Source: an uncultured Candidatus Saccharibacteria bacterium
GTDB lineage: Bacteria > Patescibacteriota > Saccharimonadia > Saccharimonadales > JAGQNJ01
Direction: 5' to 3'
NCBI GenBank assembly: GCA_964617035.1
Contig: CAZTWB010000001.1
Coordinates: 1-33,527, forward strand
Length of the DNA stretch: 33,527 nt
The notes beneath the pieces were generated by a model, which did no database searches, was not told the origin of the DNA, and saw only the letters and a program-made list of their open reading frames with translations. Positions 2,763-22,712 of the stretch are shown here, in pieces. The first letter of the stretch is position 1, and every line of letters starts with the position of its first letter. Both the position numbers and the translations under genes were made by a program.

Positions 2763-2791
2763 TTCAAAACTGTTATACTATATGTAATCTG

Positions 2792-4607: not shown

Positions 4608-5573
4608 TCACGGTCTTCGATAAGTAAATGATTTATACGCCGACCGACTAGAAAGAACGTCAGCGATTGCTTCCATAGTTTCATGAACATCGTGTTCGTT
4701 TCTCATATGCCTAGGAGTCCCTAGAATTTCAAAAATGAATTCATCGTTTGGCTTATGAATGGCTATTGGCAAAACCTTTGTATTGTCACTCGTTAGGATC
4801 TCAACAGTTCCTCTCGTTACTGGAGCAAGAGTAGACGAGTTTGGGTCTTCAGGAATTACTGATTTATCGACCGTTCCGCTTGGCGCAATTCCAAACAGAT
4901 TGCCGCCTGCTTTTAGTCTGGCTCTAATTCTTTGGCGCAAAGACCAGTTATATGCGGAGACTAATTTCTCTGGAATATTCGTGCCTCTAATAGAATCAGT
5001 TTTTGGAAAGCTAAAGTATTGTTTGTCGCATATTTGAGTAAGAATATCGACTGCCGGGATGCCAGAATATCCCAGATGAGCGATCATTTTACTTAGTATT
5101 ATATTTGTTGAGAATTGATAATCGCGACCACGATCTTGACCTATAGCTTTTATGGCGACATGGCAAGCTCCGAGTGCCTCAGCAATATCTTGAACCTCAC
5201 TGTGGTTAGTTATTACGATGATATTCTGTTTTGACAATAAATCCTCACCCAGAGATGTGACGAGGTTGCGCTCGTGTTCTTCTTGATTGAATACATCTAA
5301 GATTTCTAATGACCTTTCTGGATTCTCGCTATTGACTGCTTTGCCAATAGCAATCATATTGTCAATGTCTGTCGGTGTTCCGTCTATGGATTGAGTGGTT
5401 ATTCTTTGTGCAAGGTGAATGTTGTGGTCAATCGGAAGTGTGGTCAATTTGCCATTAGATCGATCTGCGTGTCGCTGAGCCAATGCGTTTAGTTCATCAG
5501 AAACTGTCTGTTGTTGTTCTCGCCACTGCTCAAGGGGCGCAAACCTGTGATGCTCTCCTTTTTCTAATTCCAT
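4608..5573 (-). CDS. Hypothetical protein, possibly a divergent PlsC/LPLAT-type acyltransferase
   Basis: 321 aa. VITNHSEVQD gives an HX4D block I. LKAGGNLFGIAPSGT resembles block III (FPEGTR context) and VLPIAI resembles block IV. The spacing is atypical and there is a ~115 aa N-terminal extension. Confidence 0.4.
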   Translation of the reverse strand: MELEKGEHHRFAPLEQWREQQQTVSDELNALAQRHADRSNGKLTTLPIDHNIHLAQRITTQSIDGTPTDIDNMIAIGKAVNSENPERSLEILDVFNQEEHERNLVTSLGEDLLSKQNIIVITNHSEVQDIAEALGACHVAIKAIGQDRGRDYQFSTNIILSKMIAHLGYSGIPAVDILTQICDKQYFSFPKTDSIRGTNIPEKLVSAYNWSLRQRIRARLKAGGNLFGIAPSGTVDKSVIPEDPNSSTLAPVTRGTVEILTSDNTKVLPIAIHKPNDEFIFEILGTPRHMRNEHDVHETMEAIADVLSSRSAYKSFTYRRP

Positions 5574-5676
5574 AGCTTTACTATATATCTTTTGACTGCA
5601 TTGTGTGATAAATGAAGTTAATACTACTACATGTAGCGTAGGCGAAGCGTGCTAAACTACTAATACTTAACAACAA

Positions 5677-5776
5677 AGCTGGAAATAGGTGAAATTCCTA
5701 TGCTGTGCCGCAACGGTTAAAGCCCGATACAGTTATTAAATCTCTCGAGCAAGAGTATATTTTTTAATCTCCAGCT
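5677..5776 (+). promoter_or_regulatory. Candidate compact (class II / AdoCbl-variant-like) cobalamin riboswitch in the 5' leader of the 5796 operon
   Basis: The core GGAAATAGGTGAAATTCCTATGCTGTGCCGCAACGGTTAAAGCCCGATACAG resembles the cobalamin riboswitch consensus as I recall it (GGGAA..GGTGnnAAtCC..GCnGnnCCCGCnACnGT.. then a B12-box-like AAGCCCGA.AC). Pairings seen: ATAGG/CCTAT (5685-5701, loop TGAAATT), CCG/CGG (5708-5716), CTGT/ACAG (5703-06/5729-32), CTCT/AGAG (5742-55), and an outer 7-bp helix AGCTGGA/TCCAGCT (5677-83/5770-76). SD AGGGGG and ATG 5796 follow. Confidence 0.5.
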
Positions 5777-5795
5777 CGACAGGCAGGGGGTTAAT

Positions 5796-6935
5796 ATGGA
5801 AACACTTACAGGCGAGACACTTGTAGAGCGACGTTTTGACAGGGGTCATAGGCTTTACGATGATACTACGACATGGTTGGCAGAAGCACTAGATGGCAAT
5901 ATGAGAACCAGTTTCGAGTTTAAGTTTGATGGAAACGAACTTTATGGCCAGGATGGCGGCGCCTTAGGGCCAATTTTTGCAGACTCTTTAGAAAGTGCTA
6001 AAAAATTATCTAATAATTTAAGTTTTGAATTACGTAGACGTAAACATGAAATGGACGAGTATCTAGAGATGATTCAAATGATGAACGGATCTGATTTTAA
6101 TACAATGGTTGTAGTATCTGACTTTCCTGATGAGCTAATGAACGAAACTACAGATGTTGGGGGGTATAATTGTCAGCGAAAACAATCCATGCTTAGGGTT
6201 ATAGCCAAGAAAGAAGATGGGGGGTTGACTATGCAGACTCAATCACTGGACCGTAGCGAAAGACATGCACTGGAATCTATATACCTACAGTTTGGTCATC
6301 AACCATCACCTGGAGAGTTGTTGGGTCAGCGCATCTACCTTAAGCTTGATCATGATGCTCAAAAAAAACTTCTAGATGGCTTAGTTGAAGTTTACGATCA
6401 TTCTCTATATTTACGTTATGGCGGAGAGTGGCAAGCAGGTCGACAAAAATATAAACCTATTAATACCTATGATTTTGTATTACAGCAACAAGATTTGATC
6501 AAGTATTATTCTGAAAGAGCTGACTATTTTGGCGATAATCAAGCTGTGCTTTATGGAGTGGTTGCAACCCTAAAAAGGAGATATGAAGCTATGGGTTTGG
6601 CTGGCGAATCAACCATCACGCCAACTATAGAATTCAACAAGGATAGCGAGTACAACTTAAATTACGAAATAGCTCTTTCAGTGCAACAGTCAATTATGTC
6701 AGGAGAAGATTTTAACGGTTGTGGATTAACTATCAGTATGGGCGACGATACTGCATCTCAACTAGGAGAAGCCGGCTACGGTAATAAAACTGAAACAAAT
6801 CAAACCTACCAGTTCAATAAAAAGATGCACTGTGTAGTCTGTCAGGCACCTCCCAAGGAAGGCGAGTTAAAGAAGATGTGTGGCCCATGTGGAATTTGTC
6901 GCTCGTGTGATTCTAGATTACAGAGTAAAATATAA
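5796..6935 (+). CDS. Hypothetical protein with a C-terminal six-Cys zinc-ribbon-like cluster
   Basis: 379 aa, SD AGGGGG 6 nt upstream of the ATG. I recognise no family. The C-terminus is CVVC-X12-CGPCGICRSC (CX2CX12CX2CX2CX2C). Confidence 0.6.
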   Translation: METLTGETLVERRFDRGHRLYDDTTTWLAEALDGNMRTSFEFKFDGNELYGQDGGALGPIFADSLESAKKLSNNLSFELRRRKHEMDEYLEMIQMMNGSDFNTMVVVSDFPDELMNETTDVGGYNCQRKQSMLRVIAKKEDGGLTMQTQSLDRSERHALESIYLQFGHQPSPGELLGQRIYLKLDHDAQKKLLDGLVEVYDHSLYLRYGGEWQAGRQKYKPINTYDFVLQQQDLIKYYSERADYFGDNQAVLYGVVATLKRRYEAMGLAGESTITPTIEFNKDSEYNLNYEIALSVQQSIMSGEDFNGCGLTISMGDDTASQLGEAGYGNKTETNQTYQFNKKMHCVVCQAPPKEGELKKMCGPCGICRSCDSRLQSKI

Positions 6936-6941
6936 CAAAGT

Positions 6942-7661
6942 ATGAAAAATCTATCACAAAGCAATAAATTGCCAAAAGAATTTAAAGGATTGTTAAGTTT
7001 TCTGCTGTGGTTAATCTTGACAACAGTTTTGCTTCATGTTTTTTGGCAAATTGTGCTCTGGTTTTTACATACCGACAATCGTGTATTAAATGATGTAGTT
7101 AATCGTTTTGGCTCGGATGAGGAGCTTAGCTTTCCTACTTGGGTAAATTCTATGTTGGCACTGATTGCGGGTTGTTTTGCTTGGATTGTTGGTAAACATA
7201 AAGTTAACAAAAGAAATAAAACAACTTGGTACGTAGTTGCCTTGATTGGTGTACTGATATCAATCGATGAGGTCGCATCATTTCATGAGTTGCTTCTACA
7301 AGCTTTACATATTTTGGCGAAATTTGGGGATCGTCAAAATTTTATTGATAATGCATGGTTAATATTACTGCCGTTAATACTAATCGGTGTTATTTATGGA
7401 GTGTATGAACTTCACAAAAATTTACCAAAAAATACATCAAAACGATTAGTAATAGCGTTGTTTGTATATTTGCTTGGCGCTTTAGTGGTTGAGTTCTTGT
7501 CAATTCCATTTGATAAGTCTTTGCTTGTCTACAATTTAGGTATGGTTATACTTGAAGAGACCTTAGAAATGATTGGTGTTTGGCTAGCTCTGCGGGCAGT
7601 TTTGTTACATACAAATGAACACGAACCAGAATTGGGAAAAAAGTTAACAGATATAATTTGA
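6942..7661 (+). CDS. Hypothetical polytopic membrane protein
   Basis: 239 aa with about 6 hydrophobic segments. It starts 6 nt after the previous stop, and its TGA overlaps the start of the next gene. Confidence 0.6.
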   Translation: MKNLSQSNKLPKEFKGLLSFLLWLILTTVLLHVFWQIVLWFLHTDNRVLNDVVNRFGSDEELSFPTWVNSMLALIAGCFAWIVGKHKVNKRNKTTWYVVALIGVLISIDEVASFHELLLQALHILAKFGDRQNFIDNAWLILLPLILIGVIYGVYELHKNLPKNTSKRLVIALFVYLLGALVVEFLSIPFDKSLLVYNLGMVILEETLEMIGVWLALRAVLLHTNEHEPELGKKLTDII

Positions 7662-8263
7662 TGGGAAGCGCTAAAAAGATAGGCATATTCAGCGGTACTT
7701 TTGACCCGTTTCATGAAGGACATCTACAGGCCTGTTTAATGGCAATTCAAAAATGCCAACTAGATAAAGTCGTGGTTTTAATAGAGAAAATACCGTTACA
7801 TAAAACTGGAGTTTCGAGTTATGATCATCGCATGCGCATGATCAAACTGGCGCTCAAAAACCACCAGAACATCGATTTTTTAGATATAAATTCAAACAAC
7901 ATAACCATTGATACAGTATTGCCGATTTTGAGCAAGCAATATGAAGGTAGTGAGTATTGGCTCATAACTGGATCAGATGTTATAAAGAATATTGCAAACT
8001 GGAATAAGGTTGATGAACTGCTTAAAGTTATGGGTTTATGCATAGTTAACAGAAACAACCACAGCCAAAAACAGGACAAGTTACTTATTGATGATTTGCA
8101 GAGAAAATTCGGGATAATTAGATATCGACTAATTCCAGGAATATCGTCCAACGCATCGTCTTCATTAGTACGTAGTCAAATCTATGATTGTTCAGAATCG
8201 AACTTGTTACATCCAAGAGTCTTAGACTATATCAAAACACAACAATTATATAAGACTCAATAG
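7658..8263 (+). CDS. nadD: Nicotinate/nicotinamide-nucleotide adenylyltransferase (NadD-like cytidylyltransferase fold)
   Basis: GIFSGTFDPFHEGHL (GxFxPxHxGH) lies near the N-terminus and SSSLVRSQI (ISSTxxR-like) near the C-terminus. The likely true start is ATG 7661, overlapping the upstream TGA by 1 nt. Confidence 0.75.
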   Translation: MMGSAKKIGIFSGTFDPFHEGHLQACLMAIQKCQLDKVVVLIEKIPLHKTGVSSYDHRMRMIKLALKNHQNIDFLDINSNNITIDTVLPILSKQYEGSEYWLITGSDVIKNIANWNKVDELLKVMGLCIVNRNNHSQKQDKLLIDDLQRKFGIIRYRLIPGISSNASSSLVRSQIYDCSESNLLHPRVLDYIKTQQLYKTQ

Positions 8264-18007: not shown

Positions 18008-19537
18008 GTGAGTGCAATGAACAACTACATATTCAATAAAACTAAAACACTAAATACAACACTACTAAGTATTTCTATACTAGCTATATCACTAATAGGG
18101 CTATTGGCTATAACTAAATCACCTGTCGATGCTTCTGACAATGACTTTAGTAATGGCATAACTGTAGACAGTAAGACTGATGGAGCAGATAGCAATGTTG
18201 GCGACAATATCTGCGATGATGGATCAGGTAACTGTACTCTAAGAGCAGCTATAGAAGAATCAAATGCTACAGCCGGAACTCAAACAATAAACTTCAATAT
18301 TACCGGCACAGCAGACTTCACCAATAGCGGACAAAATGGTTATACCATTCAACCTACATCTGGATTGCCAGTAATTACCGATACAGTAATCATTAATGGC
18401 TATTCACAATCAGGAGCTCAAGCTAACACTGCAGTAGCCCCAAACCCCCTAAACGGAATCTTACTTATAGAGATTGATGGGAGTGGAGCGGGTAATGCGG
18501 ACGGACTCAGGGCTGCTTCAAATAACACAGTAGTGCGAGGATTAATTATTAATGAATTCAATTCAGTAAATAGAAAAGCAATTAGTACAGAAGCGGATGA
18601 CATAATAATACATGGTAATTATCTAGGCACAGAGCCGGATGGCATGACTGCGGCGGCAAATGATTGTGGAGTTTGTATTGGAACGCCGGATCCGGACAAT
18701 ATATTAATTGGTGGCCTTAATCCTGAAAATAGAAATATTATCTCTGGCAACACCTCGACGGGCGCCTCTCCAAACGGCAATGGTGATGGGTGGATCTTTC
18801 AGGGTAACTATGTTGGGGTTGGTAAAGATGGCATGACGGCTGTGCCAAATGCCCAGTCGGGTGGTGCGGGCGCCTTCTCGATAGATAATAGCGATAATCA
18901 CATTGTTGGCGGTAATCAGACAGGAGCAATTAATGTTATCTCTGGCAATTTAGGTATTGGGATAGCTCCCCATAACACTGATAACCTATTGATTGAAGGG
19001 AACTATATTGGACTAGCGTACGATGGAGTAACTGTTGTTGGTAGTGCTCCTGGAGGTGACGGAGGAGGGATTGGATTGTCTGATTCAGATAGCTTCCAGA
19101 TCATTAACAATGATGTCGCCGGTTGGTCTAATGACGGGATTGGTATATATACGAATACCAACGGTACCATTCAAAATAATCGAGTCTTTAGCAATGGCGC
19201 TAACGGAGTGAGTGTATCAAACTCCGATAACGTAACTGTGATTGATAATGAAGTATATAACCAACAGGGTGAAGGTATGAATGTTAATAACTCTAGCAAT
19301 GTCACTATAACCAATAACACCATCCAGAATAATGACCTGGACGGCGTGTATATTAATAGCGGTTCGTCAAATACGGACATAGAGGACAACACAATCGACG
19401 GCAACACCGAAAACGGCATAGAGATCAACAACTCAACAAATACGGACATAGAGGACAACACGATCGACGGCAACACCGAAAACGGCATAGAGATCAACAA
19501 CTCAACTGGTGCCACCGTAACCAATAACACCATCTAG
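18008..19537 (+). CDS. N-terminal portion of a right-handed parallel beta-helix (PbH1/NosD-like) surface protein with a CSLREA-like N-domain; ends at an in-frame TAG
   Basis: Signal peptide (ISILAISLIGLLAITKSPVDA), then GNCTLRAAIEESNATAGTQTINF (CSLREA/choice-of-anchor-Q-like). Repeats of 22-23 aa follow (NNxIxxNxxDGI...). It terminates at TAG 19535-37 in the same frame as ORF 19556. Confidence 0.7.
   Translation: MSAMNNYIFNKTKTLNTTLLSISILAISLIGLLAITKSPVDASDNDFSNGITVDSKTDGADSNVGDNICDDGSGNCTLRAAIEESNATAGTQTINFNITGTADFTNSGQNGYTIQPTSGLPVITDTVIINGYSQSGAQANTAVAPNPLNGILLIEIDGSGAGNADGLRAASNNTVVRGLIINEFNSVNRKAISTEADDIIIHGNYLGTEPDGMTAAANDCGVCIGTPDPDNILIGGLNPENRNIISGNTSTGASPNGNGDGWIFQGNYVGVGKDGMTAVPNAQSGGAGAFSIDNSDNHIVGGNQTGAINVISGNLGIGIAPHNTDNLLIEGNYIGLAYDGVTVVGSAPGGDGGGIGLSDSDSFQIINNDVAGWSNDGIGIYTNTNGTIQNNRVFSNGANGVSVSNSDNVTVIDNEVYNQQGEGMNVNNSSNVTITNNTIQNNDLDGVYINSGSSNTDIEDNTIDGNTENGIEINNSTNTDIEDNTIDGNTENGIEINNSTGATVTNNTI
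19370..19507 (+). repeat. Two tandem 69-bp (23-aa) coding repeats inside the beta-helix gene, part of a larger 210-bp displaced duplication (about 19301-19438 vs 19511-19648)
   Basis: Units 19370-19438 and 19439-19507 both encode NTDIEDNTIDGNTENGIEINNST and differ at 2 synonymous positions. A third copy starts at 19580. Confidence 0.85.
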
Positions 19538-19555
19538 AATAATGACCTGGACGGA

Positions 19556-20860
19556 GTGAGCGTTAATAGCGGTTCGTCAAATACGGACATAGAGTACAAC
19601 ACAATCGACGGCAACACCGAAAACGGCATAGAGATTAACGGCTCATCTGACGTCAGCCTAACCACTAACAACATCCAAAACAACGACTTGGACGGCGTGT
19701 ATATATCCACAACATCAAATAATATATCGCTATTTACCAATGGTATTATTGCTAACGCCCAGAACGGAGTGGCGAGCTATGTTACTAGTGGACTAACCAT
19801 ATTCGGAAATATCATTCATACTAATACACAGTATGGCATTCGGCTTAATGGTGGCTCAGATAGTTTAATAGACAGTAATATAATCTATGATAATTTCTCC
19901 TCGGGAACAGGTGCAAATATATCACTGAACGCTGCATCATTGTTTGGTATCGTCGTAGACGATATATCTATAGCCGGCAATAAGATTGGAGTCCAGGCTA
20001 ACGGTAACATAGCAAGCAATAATCCAACATACGGTATTGTTAGTAGCGGTGATATCACTAATCTCACAATCGGCGGTATCAACACTACTGATAGTAATGA
20101 AATTGCAGGTCATGGCAACATGGGTATAAGCGTATTGTCCGGCGACCTTCAGGTTGTGCCAGCATTTATTCAGGCAAACAAAGTATCTATATTGGGTAAC
20201 TCTATACATGATAATAACTCAGTAGATAGCGGGTTAGGTATCGATTTGTATACTGGTGTAGAGCTAGGTATGCCAGATGGAGTATTCAATAGCTACACCA
20301 ATCTAGGCCCCGATGCTAACGACCCTGGTGACACTGATACAGGCTCCAATAGCCTAATAAACTTCCCGGTCATCAATAGCGCTGATCAGAACAACCTAAA
20401 TTTAAGTGTTAACTTTGACCTAGATGCTCTGGATTCTCCTACCAATCAATACCGAATAGAGTTCTTTTCGAACGACACTGCTGATCCATCAGGCTATGGT
20501 GAAGGACAAACCTATCTAGGTTTCGTCACTGTATCTCCAGGAAACAATCAAATAGCTAATCTTACGCTCCCAGCAAATACTAACCTAACCGGCAAGGTAC
20601 TATCTGCTACCACTACTGCCATAGACGGCACTACAGCTTCAGGCTTCGGTAGTACTAGTGAGTTTAGTTTGGCTAGTAGCATCACCGTCTCATCATTACC
20701 AACAAATAACAATACTACTAATTATCAAAACCAAACAAGTACAAACTTAGCTAATGCTGGAGACAGCAAGATTATTCGACTCGTTCTACTTAGTGTGGTG
20801 ATGATAGTCATCACACTAATTTTGATGGTACATGGACGGCGTCATAAAAAATCAAAATAA
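19556..20860 (+). CDS. C-terminal portion of the same beta-helix surface protein, with a C-terminal LPXTG-like or TM anchor
   Basis: Same frame as 18008..19537 and continues the beta-helix repeats directly. The C-terminus is LANAGDSKIIR-LVLLSVVMIVITLILMV-HGRRHKKSK. The track start is an internal GTG with no signal peptide, so it is unlikely to be an independent gene. Confidence 0.65.
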   Translation: MSVNSGSSNTDIEYNTIDGNTENGIEINGSSDVSLTTNNIQNNDLDGVYISTTSNNISLFTNGIIANAQNGVASYVTSGLTIFGNIIHTNTQYGIRLNGGSDSLIDSNIIYDNFSSGTGANISLNAASLFGIVVDDISIAGNKIGVQANGNIASNNPTYGIVSSGDITNLTIGGINTTDSNEIAGHGNMGISVLSGDLQVVPAFIQANKVSILGNSIHDNNSVDSGLGIDLYTGVELGMPDGVFNSYTNLGPDANDPGDTDTGSNSLINFPVINSADQNNLNLSVNFDLDALDSPTNQYRIEFFSNDTADPSGYGEGQTYLGFVTVSPGNNQIANLTLPANTNLTGKVLSATTTAIDGTTASGFGSTSEFSLASSITVSSLPTNNNTTNYQNQTSTNLANAGDSKIIRLVLLSVVMIVITLILMVHGRRHKKSK

Positions 20861-20917
20861 ATCTTCGTTATCGTTGAGACATTGTGATACAATAGTGCTT
20901 ACGGTAGCTAGTATTTA

Positions 20918-21589
20918 ATGAATAGATATTTTAAATCACTAATTATACTCATTGTTTTGCCAGTAATGGTTGTTCTACCAATGTTTTTGGCACAGACTCT
21001 ATCTATTGATGCTCAAGTTGTGGCTCAGCAAGATACTCTTCAGCAAAGGGTTGAGCAGTACAAAGCAAAGTTGCAAACCCAACCTACAAAATCAGACTTA
21101 ACCAAATTAAAACTTCGTTGTGACGTTGCGCAATCTAAGCTCAAGACTATTAGCGAAAAAGCCGGAAAGGTTCAGGAACAGCGCGTTGCGTCTTATGATA
21201 AGATCAATAAAAAACTAGAAAACTTAACTACTGCACTAAAAGCAAAGAATATTGCTACTACAGACTTAGAAGCTCAAAGCAAGGAGCTAAAAACCAAAAC
21301 CGATACATTTGCTACAGACCTTCAGGCTTTCAAGCAAGCTACAGAAGATGCAGCGAATGCTGATTGTGCAAATGACCCTCTTGCAATGAAGGCATCTTTA
21401 GAGAGTGCCAGGATAAGCTACACTAAATTAATACAAGAAGTTAGCGACATAAGGGCGTATGTAAACAACGTAATCAAAACAACCCTTAAGCAAACCAAAG
21501 ATGATTTACTGACCCAGCAAAAAGCGAGCAGTGCGACCGATAATGGTCAAACACCTACATCAGGAGGGACAACAGATGCAACCCAATAA
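20918..21589 (+). CDS. Secreted coiled-coil hypothetical protein
   Basis: 223 aa with an N-terminal signal/TM segment (LIILIVLPVMVVLPMFLAQT) and long heptad-like K/Q/E/T-rich segments. Confidence 0.55.
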   Translation: MNRYFKSLIILIVLPVMVVLPMFLAQTLSIDAQVVAQQDTLQQRVEQYKAKLQTQPTKSDLTKLKLRCDVAQSKLKTISEKAGKVQEQRVASYDKINKKLENLTTALKAKNIATTDLEAQSKELKTKTDTFATDLQAFKQATEDAANADCANDPLAMKASLESARISYTKLIQEVSDIRAYVNNVIKTTLKQTKDDLLTQQKASSATDNGQTPTSGGTTDATQ

Positions 21590-22103
21590 TAAAGAACAGA
21601 ATAATGTTGCACCAGTAATGGATATACAGCGACCCACACAAACATCTCCTTCTCCACAACCTAGACCTACGACAGTGTTTACTCCCAGTAGTCAACAAAC
21701 TAGACCTGCAACCATGGAGTATACTCGACCACGTATGGACACGAATACTACGTTCGATCAGTCTCCACAAATCAGCCAGCAGGACATTAATATGAATAAG
21801 CCAAAGAAGTCAAAGAAAGGATTAATAATTAGTTTATTCGTCCTATTATTTGTTGGCTTATCAGGAGCCGGAGCTTATTACTACATGGCTGTTTACAAGA
21901 AAGCTGCTTCTCAGCCACAGCCACAACCACAACCTGTAGTTGAAACTCAGCCAACAGAGACAACAACTGATTCATCCACGGTTCCAGCGACACCAGATGG
22001 TGTTGACCAGACTGTTGAAGAGATTGATCAACAATTGAATTCACAAAATGACACTCAGGATTTTCCGTCTAACGACGTCAGTGATAGTAATCTAGGATTG
22101 TAA
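21576..22103 (+). CDS. Pro/Gln/Thr-rich single-pass membrane protein, hypothetical
   Basis: The track ORF begins at 21531, but GGAGGG sits 6 nt before ATG 21576 (MQPNNKEQNN), giving a 14-nt overlap with the upstream gene. It has one TM (GLIISLFVLLFVGLSGAGAYYYMAV) and a QPQPQPQP tract. Confidence 0.55.
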   Translation: MQPNNKEQNNVAPVMDIQRPTQTSPSPQPRPTTVFTPSSQQTRPATMEYTRPRMDTNTTFDQSPQISQQDINMNKPKKSKKGLIISLFVLLFVGLSGAGAYYYMAVYKKAASQPQPQPQPVVETQPTETTTDSSTVPATPDGVDQTVEEIDQQLNSQNDTQDFPSNDVSDSNLGL

Positions 22104-22154
22104 TATTCACTAAGATTATTCAAATTCCTGTAATTAGGTGCTAGTATTAGCATT

Positions 22155-22712
22155 GTGTCATTTTATGATATAAAAATCGAAACACTAAAAGATTTGCCAT
22201 CCTTAGAAGGAGTAACGGTTATTAGTGACTGTGATGGAGCATTGTTTAAGCACGGCACTAGTGATGCATATCCTGATGTCCTGCCAGCTTTAGAATCAGT
22301 AGGAAGTTTAGTTTTAGTATCAGCTTGCCCAGACGCAAAATTAATGGAAGAGAGGCATGCTACGCTAACCGCAGATGCTTCAATCTATGCACATAAAGCA
22401 CGTTGGTACAAAGGCGACATGTTTAAAAAAGTGGCAGACAATATCGCTAGATCTGTGGATAAAGTAGTAATAATTGGTGATAGACCGGTTGCTGACGTAG
22501 GGGTAGCAAAATATGTATTTGGAAGAAAAGGGTATCGCACCTTAGGGGTTAGAATCGATCGCCCCGAACAGCCGTTACCTCACAAGGTAGATTACGTATT
22601 GCATCCAAGTTTTATCATTGGATCAACATTAATAAAAAAATTGAAACGAGACGAATTGTTTCGTCCAAGATTTGAAGATAGTCAAAATATCACAGAAAAC
22701 TTTTTGAAGTAG
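22155..22712 (+). CDS. HAD-superfamily phosphatase-like protein
   Basis: 185 aa, GTG start. DxD motif I (VISDCDGALF) and motif IV-like VVIIGDRPVADV. Confidence 0.5.
   Translation: MSFYDIKIETLKDLPSLEGVTVISDCDGALFKHGTSDAYPDVLPALESVGSLVLVSACPDAKLMEERHATLTADASIYAHKARWYKGDMFKKVADNIARSVDKVVIIGDRPVADVGVAKYVFGRKGYRTLGVRIDRPEQPLPHKVDYVLHPSFIIGSTLIKKLKRDELFRPRFEDSQNITENFLK

Follow-up and report, generated by a model that had tools for sequence, protein, structure and literature searches.

Comparison with described cobalamin riboswitches

The class-IIa cobalamin riboswitch env8 (Rfam RF01689; PDB 4FRG/4FRN, as cited in PMC6158498) possesses a compact four-way-junction aptamer without P6 extension and a 3' hairpin, P13, which kisses the loop L5 leaving purine(s) unpaired and carries the ribosome-binding site in its own loop L13. 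In the metE leader of Priestia megaterium, P13 is weak and is held in place by a kissing loop; the 3' side of P13 otherwise pairs with the 5' side of a downstream hairpin. This competition between the 3' side of P13 and the terminator's 5' side has been verified by mutagenesis (PMC10327014). Here we describe a related RNA from an uncultured Candidatus Saccharibacteria bacterium. It is encoded in a stretch of 33,527 nucleotides of contig CAZTWB010000001.1, referred to below as the 33.5-kb window, to which all positions refer unless another locus is named. The segment 5667-5739 (plus strand) is with high probability a class-II-type cobalamin (B12/corrinoid) aptamer at the mRNA 5' end of an orphan gene (5796-6935, plus strand, hereafter gene 1), most likely acting as a B12-dependent OFF switch.

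The window RNA shares with env8 the compact four-way-junction aptamer lacking a P6 extension, the T-loop GUGAAAUUC in L4, a P13 hairpin proposed to kiss L5 with an unpaired purine, and control at the level of translation, which is predicted for the window RNA. Unlike in env8, where the ribosome-binding site resides in L13, L13 of the window RNA reads CGAGCA and the Shine-Dalgarno (SD) sequence lies in a separate downstream hairpin that would be governed by an anti-sequester pairing. Further differences are the L5 sequence UGCCG in place of the CCU-type loop of the Rfam RF01689 consensus, and an invariant 5' segment UUAACAA combined with a weak Rfam P1, which is unlike both env8 and RF01689.

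The logic of the metE leader recurs in the window RNA, but the parts differ. The metE riboswitch acts by transcription termination and has an aptamer of class I, whose L5 reads UCCCG and whose kissing loop is made of five contiguous pairs, whereas the window RNA comprises a class-II aptamer, the loop pair UGCCG/CG(A)GCA with a bulged A, and an SD-burying hairpin without U-tract. RF00174 riboswitches, e.g. that of E. coli btuB, belong to the same clan; they share the B12-box core with the window RNA, and likewise an L5-L13 kissing loop, which for the window RNA is proposed. Rfam even assigns those orthologues of the window element that carry an L6 insertion to RF00174. The window copy itself differs from this family by its minimal 7-nt L6 and the missing peripheral P6 extension, and RF01689 is its best model. 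Judged by its sequence, the window RNA is a genuine member of the class-II cobalamin riboswitches; the class is known, and a routine Rfam pass would detect this member.

Identification of the aptamer

A first-pass annotation of the window had placed a cobalamin riboswitch core in the 222-nt gap (5574-5795) between two divergent open reading frames (ORFs), 4608-5573 (minus strand) and 5796-6935 (plus strand). The gap is present, and so is the core string GGAA-AUAGG-UGAAAUU-CCUAU-GCUGUGCCGCAACGGUUAAAGCCCGAUAC at 5681-5730, far beyond chance expectation. We scanned the whole window with Infernal against Rfam 15 at gathering thresholds. The sole Rfam match in the 33.5 kb was RF01689 (AdoCbl-II, formerly AdoCbl-variant) at 5667-5739 (plus strand) with 40.6 bits, the gathering score being 36.5; E is 1.6e-6 over the whole window and 1.9e-8 over a 401-nt region. 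The match extends over model positions 1-81 of 81, i.e. the full length, and the cmscan check proposed in the annotation has thus given a significant hit. RF01689 outscores the other cobalamin-clan models at this leader; RF00174 is not the best clan model for the window copy, and a P6 peripheral extension was not found there.

All helices of the aptamer lie on the plus strand. P3 (5678-81/5730-33) is formed by GCUG and CAGU, P4 (5685-89/5697-5701) closes the loop UGAAAUU, P5 (5704-05/5711-12) bears L5 (UGCCG, 5706-10), and P6 (5714-16/5724-26) bears a 7-nt L6 (5717-5723). The latter is followed by the J6/3 segment AUA (5727-29). An outer P1 as defined by Rfam (5667-69/5737-39) is weak and includes one non-standard pair in the window copy. 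The T-loop GUGAAAUUC of L4 (5689-5697) and the B12-box-like L6/J6/3 segment AAGYCMGAUAC (5720-5730) are near-invariant in alignments of 25 and 64 orthologues.

The short class-II type without P6 extension, as assumed in the annotation, is right for the window copy with its minimal 7-nt L6. L6 varies considerably among 63 orthologous elements (alignment A3): 19 elements including the window have 7 nt, a further 36 have 10-36 nt, and eight have 47-101 nt. Rfam divides this one orthologous set between RF01689 and RF00174 because the L6 insertions vary (10-101 nt). Hence a single riboswitch lineage drifts over the boundary between Rfam class I and class II by means of L6 insertions. Class-II members cover the full range of ligand selectivity (PMC6158498), and a preference of the window RNA for adenosylcobalamin (AdoCbl) or for methylcobalamin (MeCbl) and hydroxocobalamin (HyCbl) cannot be read from its sequence.

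Conservation and covariation

Species-representative genomes were scanned with an alignment of 48 gene-1 homologues (A1), resulting in 66 related loci. All 66 originate from Ca. Saccharibacteria/Saccharimonadales/Saccharimonadia metagenome-assembled genomes (MAGs) or from unclassified MAGs, in agreement with the reduced-genome organism predicted from the sequence before. Directly 5' of the orthologue, a cobalamin-clan match at the Rfam gathering score was obtained in 11 of 18 loci (six RF01689, five RF00174). We then built a clade covariance model, R1, from 25 leaders, comprising the aptamer and the subsequent hairpin. The R1 element was found on the coding strand 5' of the gene in all 62 loci with upstream sequence; the remaining four of the 66 loci end at the gene. 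The window copy exhibits the highest R1 score (105.6 bits). Also a distant member of the gene-1 family in a different neighbourhood (L067) is preceded by an R1 riboswitch.

In an alignment of 64 sequences, 98.8% of the cells hold standard pairs, and 15 of 20 pairs exhibit compensatory changes on both sides. None of 500 shuffles matched the observed values, and sliding the 3' partners by 1-3 columns reduced pairing to 30-46%. The 64-sequence alignment is fitted to the covariance model; a MAFFT alignment fitted to no structure agrees with it, and P3, P4, P6 and the P13 hairpin covary there, too. In the MAFFT alignment, the P6 pair G-C is replaced by U-A in 8 of 25 sequences and double changes occur in four of the five P4 pairs. 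P5 is invariant in this unfitted alignment and shows a U-A to A-U swap in seven sequences of the larger one. The annotation had named lack of conservation or covariation among orthologues, together with lack of a significant cobalamin-model hit, as refuting its proposal; P3, P4, P6 and P13 are conserved with compensatory changes. It is established that the RNA is a member of the aptamer family, that its helices are conserved and covary, and that the element is linked to the gene-1 family.

The segment UUAACAA (5667-5673) at the 5' end of the RNA is near-invariant in the orthologues, although its partner strand in the Rfam P1 is variable and often unpaired. Class-II aptamers possess a J1/3 T-loop element (PMC6158498). 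UUAACAA may be this T-loop, or an element near the transcription start.

P13 and a proposed L5-L13 kissing loop

The aptamer is followed by the hairpin CUCU-CGAGCA-AGAG (5742-5755, plus strand; stem 5742-45/5752-55, L13 5746-51), which corresponds to P13. This hairpin had been drawn in the annotation together with a subsequent TATATTTTTT. The hairpin is real and near-universal among the orthologues, but conservation does not extend to the U-run. The P13 stem covaries (CUCC/GGAG, CUUC/GAAG, CUCU/AGAG) beneath a conserved loop: L13 is CGAGCA in 53 of 64 sequences, and the L5 sequence GUGCCGC is invariant. With -2.1 kcal/mol for P13 alone in the window and a median of -2.25 kcal/mol in the orthologues, the hairpin is weak.

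Five positions of L5 can pair with L13, leaving A5748 bulged, and complementarity is seen in 99.2% of the cells. The proposed kissing loop (plus strand) consists of the pairs U5706-A5751, G5707-C5750, C5708-G5749, C5709-G5747 and G5710-C5746. An invariant loop on top of a covarying stem is consistent with such a feature, and we infer an L5-L13 kissing loop in the window RNA. A kissing loop between L5 and L13 is what defines regulation in cobalamin riboswitches. Published L5-L13 kissing loops always include unpaired nucleotides (PMC5028336), and by analogy the putative P13 architecture of the window RNA matches kissing loops of this kind (PMC5028336, PMC10327014). The L5 consensus UCCCG pairs with CGGGA-type L13 loops (PMC10327014). 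Compared to this consensus, the Saccharibacteria loops exhibit a matched double change, C to G at position 2 of L5 and G to C at its partner in L13.

Expression platform and proposed switching

Between P13 and the start codon, the minimum free energy (MFE) structure contains a hairpin sequestering the SD sequence (5764-5772/5786-5794 with an upper stem 5774-76/5782-84, plus strand; -12.3 kcal/mol). The annotation had not mentioned this hairpin. The SD sequence GGGGG (5786-5790), six nt 5' of the ATG at 5796, is paired with UCUCC (5768-5772). An alternative, anti-sequester pairing (5746-5778, plus strand; -10.0 kcal/mol) joins the loop and 3' strand of P13, CGAGCAAGAG (5746-5755), with the anti-SD strand CUCCAGCUCG (5769-5778) and would represent the ligand-free ON state. 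It comprises the pairs 5746-5778 to 5750-5774 and 5753-5771 to 5755-5769. For the partial transcript 5740-5779, i.e. before the SD strand is made, the anti-sequester pairing is the MFE structure. These complementarities and their energies are established for the window.

Both structures recur in the orthologues. Start codons were assigned heuristically in some loci, and a few mis-assigned ones were excluded from this comparison of platforms. The SD sequence is paired in an equivalent hairpin in nearly all orthologues, with a median of -13.25 kcal/mol and with the hairpin ending at a median of 6 nt 5' of the start codon. In 44 of 50 orthologues, the alternative helix is the MFE structure formed by the partial transcript. 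For the P13 loop and 3' strand, the most favourable duplex site lies at least partly on the anti-SD strand in 46 of 58. Furthermore, some loop variants are compensated downstream. This applies to L001 (CUAGCA/UGCUAG), L025 (CGAGCUA/UAGCUCG) and L054 (GAGCUAAG/CUUAGCUC), the loop of the latter being also written CGAGCUAAG with the partner CUUAGCUC downstream.

From these elements we propose the following mechanism. A bound corrinoid would organise the P3-P6 four-way junction, enabling L5 (UGCCG, 5706-10) to kiss L13 (CG[A]GCA, 5746-51) of the weak P13. With P13 locked in this way, CUCCAGCUCG (5769-78) would be free to pair with the GGGGG of the SD in the hairpin 5764-94, and sequestration of the SD would block translation initiation. 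Without ligand P13 would fail, its loop and 3' strand would pair with the anti-SD strand as soon as this is transcribed, the SD would stay open and gene 1 would be translated. The window element is thus likely a B12-dependent OFF switch.

By analogy, the predicted expression platform of the window RNA follows a published design. As in the metE-type arrangement, P13 is weaker than the alternative pairing (-2.1 vs -10.0 kcal/mol). In metE, the downstream hairpin is an intrinsic terminator; this does not apply to the window but to 38 of 50 orthologues, in which the sequester hairpin is followed by at least 5 U within 9 nt and resembles a terminator. In the window, only 3 U are present in the 7 nt between the hairpin and the end of the start codon, and a consensus terminator scan found no intrinsic terminator in 5400-6000. 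In most orthologues the U-tract-bearing sequester hairpin probably terminates transcription as well. Since the sequester hairpin of the window is without U-tract, control in the window RNA is probably translational, acting mainly on translation.

In the locus L037 (3336-3460), the 3' strand of P13 is the SD itself (CCUCCGAGCAGAGGGuauuuuAUG), which is a direct arrangement of the env8 type without separate sequester hairpin. It is the only orthologue of this kind. The expression platform therefore varies within one gene family. A sub-clade (L023, L024, L031-L035, L040, L041) contains an extra hairpin with the conserved loop CAACUCGUAAGG between P13 and the sequester hairpin.

Alternative explanations

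Several findings weigh against a B12-dependent OFF switch as outlined above. Ligand binding and regulation, including its direction, are inferred, and the transcription start at about 5665-5667, the 5' edge of the aptamer, is a prediction from sequence features. The outer P1 is weak, its three pairs being 72% paired and showing no covariation. The MFE of the single leader sequence (5660-5815) is no better than that of shuffles (z = -0.37), and the shuffle z-scores of the duplex are modest (mean -1.5). The kissing loop lacks covariation support; both loops are invariant in the clade, and covariation can therefore not confirm their contact. The loop variants of L020 and L016 have no downstream compensation, and the anti-sequester helix of the window contains a 2x2 internal mismatch. 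Moreover, the OFF state of the window is lower in energy (-14.4 kcal/mol) than the ON state (-10.0 kcal/mol) even without ligand; the decision must therefore be kinetic and co-transcriptional. Finally, neither a B12-dependent enzyme nor a known B12 transporter was found in the 33.5-kb window.

Other explanations explain the observations less well. The aptamer might be real with regulation occurring by termination at the CUCU-CGAGCA-AGAG hairpin and the following UAUAUUUUUU, as hairpin and downstream U-rich stretch are both present in the window and L013 likewise has a U-run past the equivalent hairpin. This is very unlikely in view of a stem of 4 bp with -2.1 kcal/mol, which is separated from the U-run by UAUA, and of the empty terminator scan. 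In most orthologues the U-run is missing past the hairpin, while the hairpin and its 6-nt loop are conserved, and a terminator would not need an invariant loop complementary to L5. With its weak stem, the empty terminator scan and this loop, the hairpin was rejected as a terminator and assigned to P13. A further pairing from the annotation, an outer 7-bp helix of AGCTGGA (5677-83) and TCCAGCT (5770-76), is indeed an exact complement but at chance level and not conserved: perfect complements of at least 7 nt between the flanks occurred in 113 of 1000 shuffles, and complements of at least 6 nt between the same regions in just 5 of 52 orthologous leaders. As a conserved structure it was rejected, and GCUG (5678-81) pairs with CAGU (5730-33) in P3. 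The same strands could nevertheless form a switch, in which ligand-free AGCUGGA (5677-83, including the 5' strand of P3) pairs with UCCAGCU (5770-76) of the anti-SD strand and frees the SD, until the ligand pulls the 5' strand back into the aptamer. The perfect duplex reaches -10.3 kcal/mol and overlaps both P3 and the anti-SD strand, and it could add to the ON state in the window sequence alone. We consider such a switch unlikely, however, given an equal-length complement in 11% of the shuffles, its rarity among the orthologues, and the fact that class-II cobalamin riboswitches are described as switching via L5-L13 and not via aptamer helices (PMC5028336, PMC10327014).

Activating corrinoid riboswitches exist (PMC10327014), and B12 might activate gene 1 in a manner resembling the A. 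halodurans cobT riboswitch with P13 as antiterminator. Here, however, P13 and the sequester hairpin are compatible and not mutually exclusive, and the competition for the anti-SD strand is between the SD and the 3' strand of P13, so that a stabilised P13 favours sequestration. Besides, a protein with the B12-binder domain DUF4430 belongs to the sister cargo of the slot occupied by gene 1 (see below), and B12-uptake genes are classically repressed by B12. Taken together, an ON switch is hardly probable. It is also extremely unlikely that the aptamer is a decaying relic or the sensor of a non-corrinoid ligand. An Rfam score only 4 bits over the gathering score and the absence of visible B12 genes nearby would fit this idea. 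On the other hand, the window copy is the best match to the clade model (105.6 bits), each of its core nucleotides corresponds to the clade consensus, and the element is retained across 62 species with compensatory substitutions. It is also located upstream of DUF4430 proteins, whose domain is known from B12 binders. The B12-dependent OFF switch remains the preferred explanation.

The putatively regulated gene

Directly 3' of the riboswitch, gene 1 (5796-6935, plus strand) encodes an orphan protein of 379 amino acids (aa). In accordance with the annotation, which had expected genes of no recognisable function behind the riboswitch, neither a Pfam nor an NCBIfam family is assigned to gene 1, and Pfam-A and NCBIfam gave no match for 48 members of its family; no Pfam domains were found in longer, distant members, either. 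The conserved features comprise a set of acidic and basic positions that do not vary, the pair C309-G310, likewise invariant and located in a Gly-rich loop, and a ribbon of six cysteines at the C-terminus (C346, C349, C362, C365, C368 and C371). A signal peptide, a transmembrane (TM) segment or similarity to DUF4430 or DUF6580 was not found in gene 1. Its 407 homologues include none with an informative name, and one is labelled Ca. Saccharimonadales. A search of 1.84 billion cluster representatives with the gene-1 profile yielded only 452 proteins.

Structure-based comparisons gave a similar picture. The gene-1 profile had no significant match among the PDB sequences (best E 0.33). An AlphaFold2 (AF2) model calculated from the 48-sequence alignment was confident and reached a predicted local distance difference test (pLDDT) of 84 and a predicted TM-score (pTM) of 0.74. 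With this model, Foldseek found no match at or below an E of 0.001, either in the PDB (best E 0.093, TM-score about 0.1) or in BFVD (best E 0.0043, TM-score 0.10).

On balance, we favour the view that gene 1 and its relatives (350-575 aa; Gly-rich Cys loop, C-terminal CxxC ribbon) constitute an undescribed, B12-linked and Saccharibacteria-specific superfamily with a fold absent from the PDB. Its members are perhaps cytoplasmic corrinoid-binding or corrinoid-processing factors replacing DUF4430/DUF6580, or they might take over a B12-dependent step without needing B12. As to the role of gene 1 itself, corrinoid handling is our first guess with somewhat less than even chances, a B12-independent substitute enzyme is a clearly weaker guess, and something else might apply as well.

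A slot with interchangeable cargo

To cover a wider regulon, metagenomes were scanned for a pattern in which L5 anchor, B12 box and P13 loop were all required. At least 120 stretches matched, of which 80 loci were listed; the taxonomy of these metagenome contigs rests on synteny only. Among the matches listed there were 61 usable downstream ORFs. Thirteen of them match the gene-1 hidden Markov model (HMM), and 33 are grouped with the gene-1 family in a single cluster by BLASTP single linkage. Seven of the 61 are small TM-anchored DUF4430 proteins. Most of the other ORFs in this set are orphans, several of which end in a Gly/Cys motif and CxxC ribbons.

Using hhalign, proteins of the L122 type could be linked to gene 1 over 354 columns with a probability of 97.4%, and those of the L099 type through the C-terminal module (92.4%). 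Comparison of the gene-1 profile with the single-sequence orphan groups L092, L120, L142, L098 and L125 was not significant. Gene 1 is part of a divergent superfamily whose members follow riboswitches of this type in many metagenome contigs.

Transcobalamin-type B12 binders carry DUF4430 as their C-terminal domain (PMC4350170). In the loci concerned, the DUF4430 gene is followed by an overlapping gene for a DUF6580 membrane protein. In related Saccharibacteria this pair occupies the slot of gene 1, with the gene order lexA..[riboswitch-X]..nadD..kefB(-); examples are L076:607-2358 and L133:2045-6166, together with L110, L111, L112, L117 and L086. As the same slot holds either gene 1, which codes for a fast-evolving orphan, or DUF4430/DUF6580, the cargo controlled by the riboswitch is interchangeable. 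DUF4430/DUF6580 is a candidate B12-capture system, with DUF6580 as candidate component of a B12 transporter. These putative uptake genes and gene 1 share the riboswitch type and the slot, but gene 1 differs from them in having no signal peptide, TM segment, known domain or similarity to either protein. The swappable slot supports a B12-related role of gene 1 without proving one.

In the locus L084 (3257-4925), the riboswitch pattern was observed 5' of a reductive-dehalogenase-like protein, one of the 61 ORFs, in which a twin-arginine signal and two Cys-rich ferredoxin-like motifs were recognised by eye. If this protein is a reductive dehalogenase, the L5/L13 variant may not be exclusive to Saccharibacteria.

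The RNA itself is textbook; new is its steady link to an orphan superfamily of unmatched fold and to a swappable B12-controlled slot. Very few regulatory or vitamin-related functions are recognisable in Saccharibacteria episymbionts. We found no paper in the library searched joining Saccharibacteria with a cobalamin riboswitch, nor one combining Saccharibacteria, cobalamin and ribonucleotide reductase, and a broader search for Patescibacteria or Candidate Phyla Radiation with cobalamin, B12 or riboswitch returned nothing relevant. The conserved riboswitch offers a functional handle and a testable hypothesis for several hundred 'hypothetical proteins'. It suggests that Saccharibacteria sense the availability of corrinoids, presumably supplied by the host or the community. 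If the superfamily is indeed B12-linked, B12 status would be a signal of importance to these ultrasmall bacteria, which depend on a host. The range of platforms, from an env8-like SD in P13 to designs of three hairpins with a terminator, is useful for studying the evolution of expression platforms. Riboswitches have been proposed as genetic tools in Patescibacteria (PMC11665869), and an OFF switch that is compact and occurs naturally in this phylum could become such a tool.

Promoter region

At 5650-5658 (plus strand) the window contains a putative extended -10 element, TGCTAAACT (TGn + TAAACT), with conserved spacing to the aptamer: TGCTAnACT(ACTA) is found at a constant distance from the aptamer across the orthologous leaders. 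A generic promoter scan did not call this element, there being no -35.

Further upstream, a conserved box with the consensus AATACTAyATnTAGCGT (AATACTACTACATGTAGCGT region in the window; 5623-5639, plus strand) includes the perfect palindrome CTACATGTAG (5627-5636). Of 68 sources, 40 have the strict core ACTAyATnTAG about 40 nt 5' of the aptamer on the plus strand, in most cases as the sole copy in the locus; exceptions are L051, whose only copy lies elsewhere, and four sources with a second match. The box is a poor match to a sigma-70 -35 element. It may be a promoter element specific to the lineage, or an operator for some transcription factor, which would add another level of control. We also considered a LexA box, which found no support, since no second copy is located near lexA and a weak match in the window (2776-2789) is at chance level.

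Neighbouring genes

Gene 2 (6942-7661, plus strand) encodes a multi-TM protein of 239 aa. It is probably co-transcribed with gene 1 and an accessory passenger of the operon, being located between gene 1 and nadD in just 6 of 66 loci. No Pfam family was found for it. A relationship to DUF6580 was rejected, as the comparison showed the two to be unrelated. Gene 2 may be an accessory transporter or a membrane partner.

The nadD gene (nicotinate-nucleotide adenylyltransferase; 7658-8263, plus strand; TIGR00482, 114.9 bits compared to a cut-off of 112.45) overlaps the end of gene 2. It is located 3' of gene 1 in 50 of 66 loci, and nadD-like genes take that place in 12 of 22 metagenome loci. We set aside a functional coupling of gene 1 and nadD: nadD also follows DUF4430/DUF6580 in the same slot, and its adjacency is therefore a matter of conserved gene order. 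Accordingly, nadD is regarded as a syntenic neighbour that may or may not be under riboswitch control.

The divergent gene 4608-5573 (minus strand) encodes a protein of 321 aa without Pfam or NCBIfam family. Control of this gene by the riboswitch was rejected, as the RNA is encoded on the opposite strand and the gene is found at this position in just 7 of 66 loci.

Farther downstream in the window, two adjacent genes (18008-20860 and 20918-22712) encode right-handed beta-helix (NosD-like) proteins, and three small ORFs without Pfam families come after them. The NosD-like pair (18008-22712) probably represents surface or secreted proteins of the episymbiont that are unrelated to the riboswitch.

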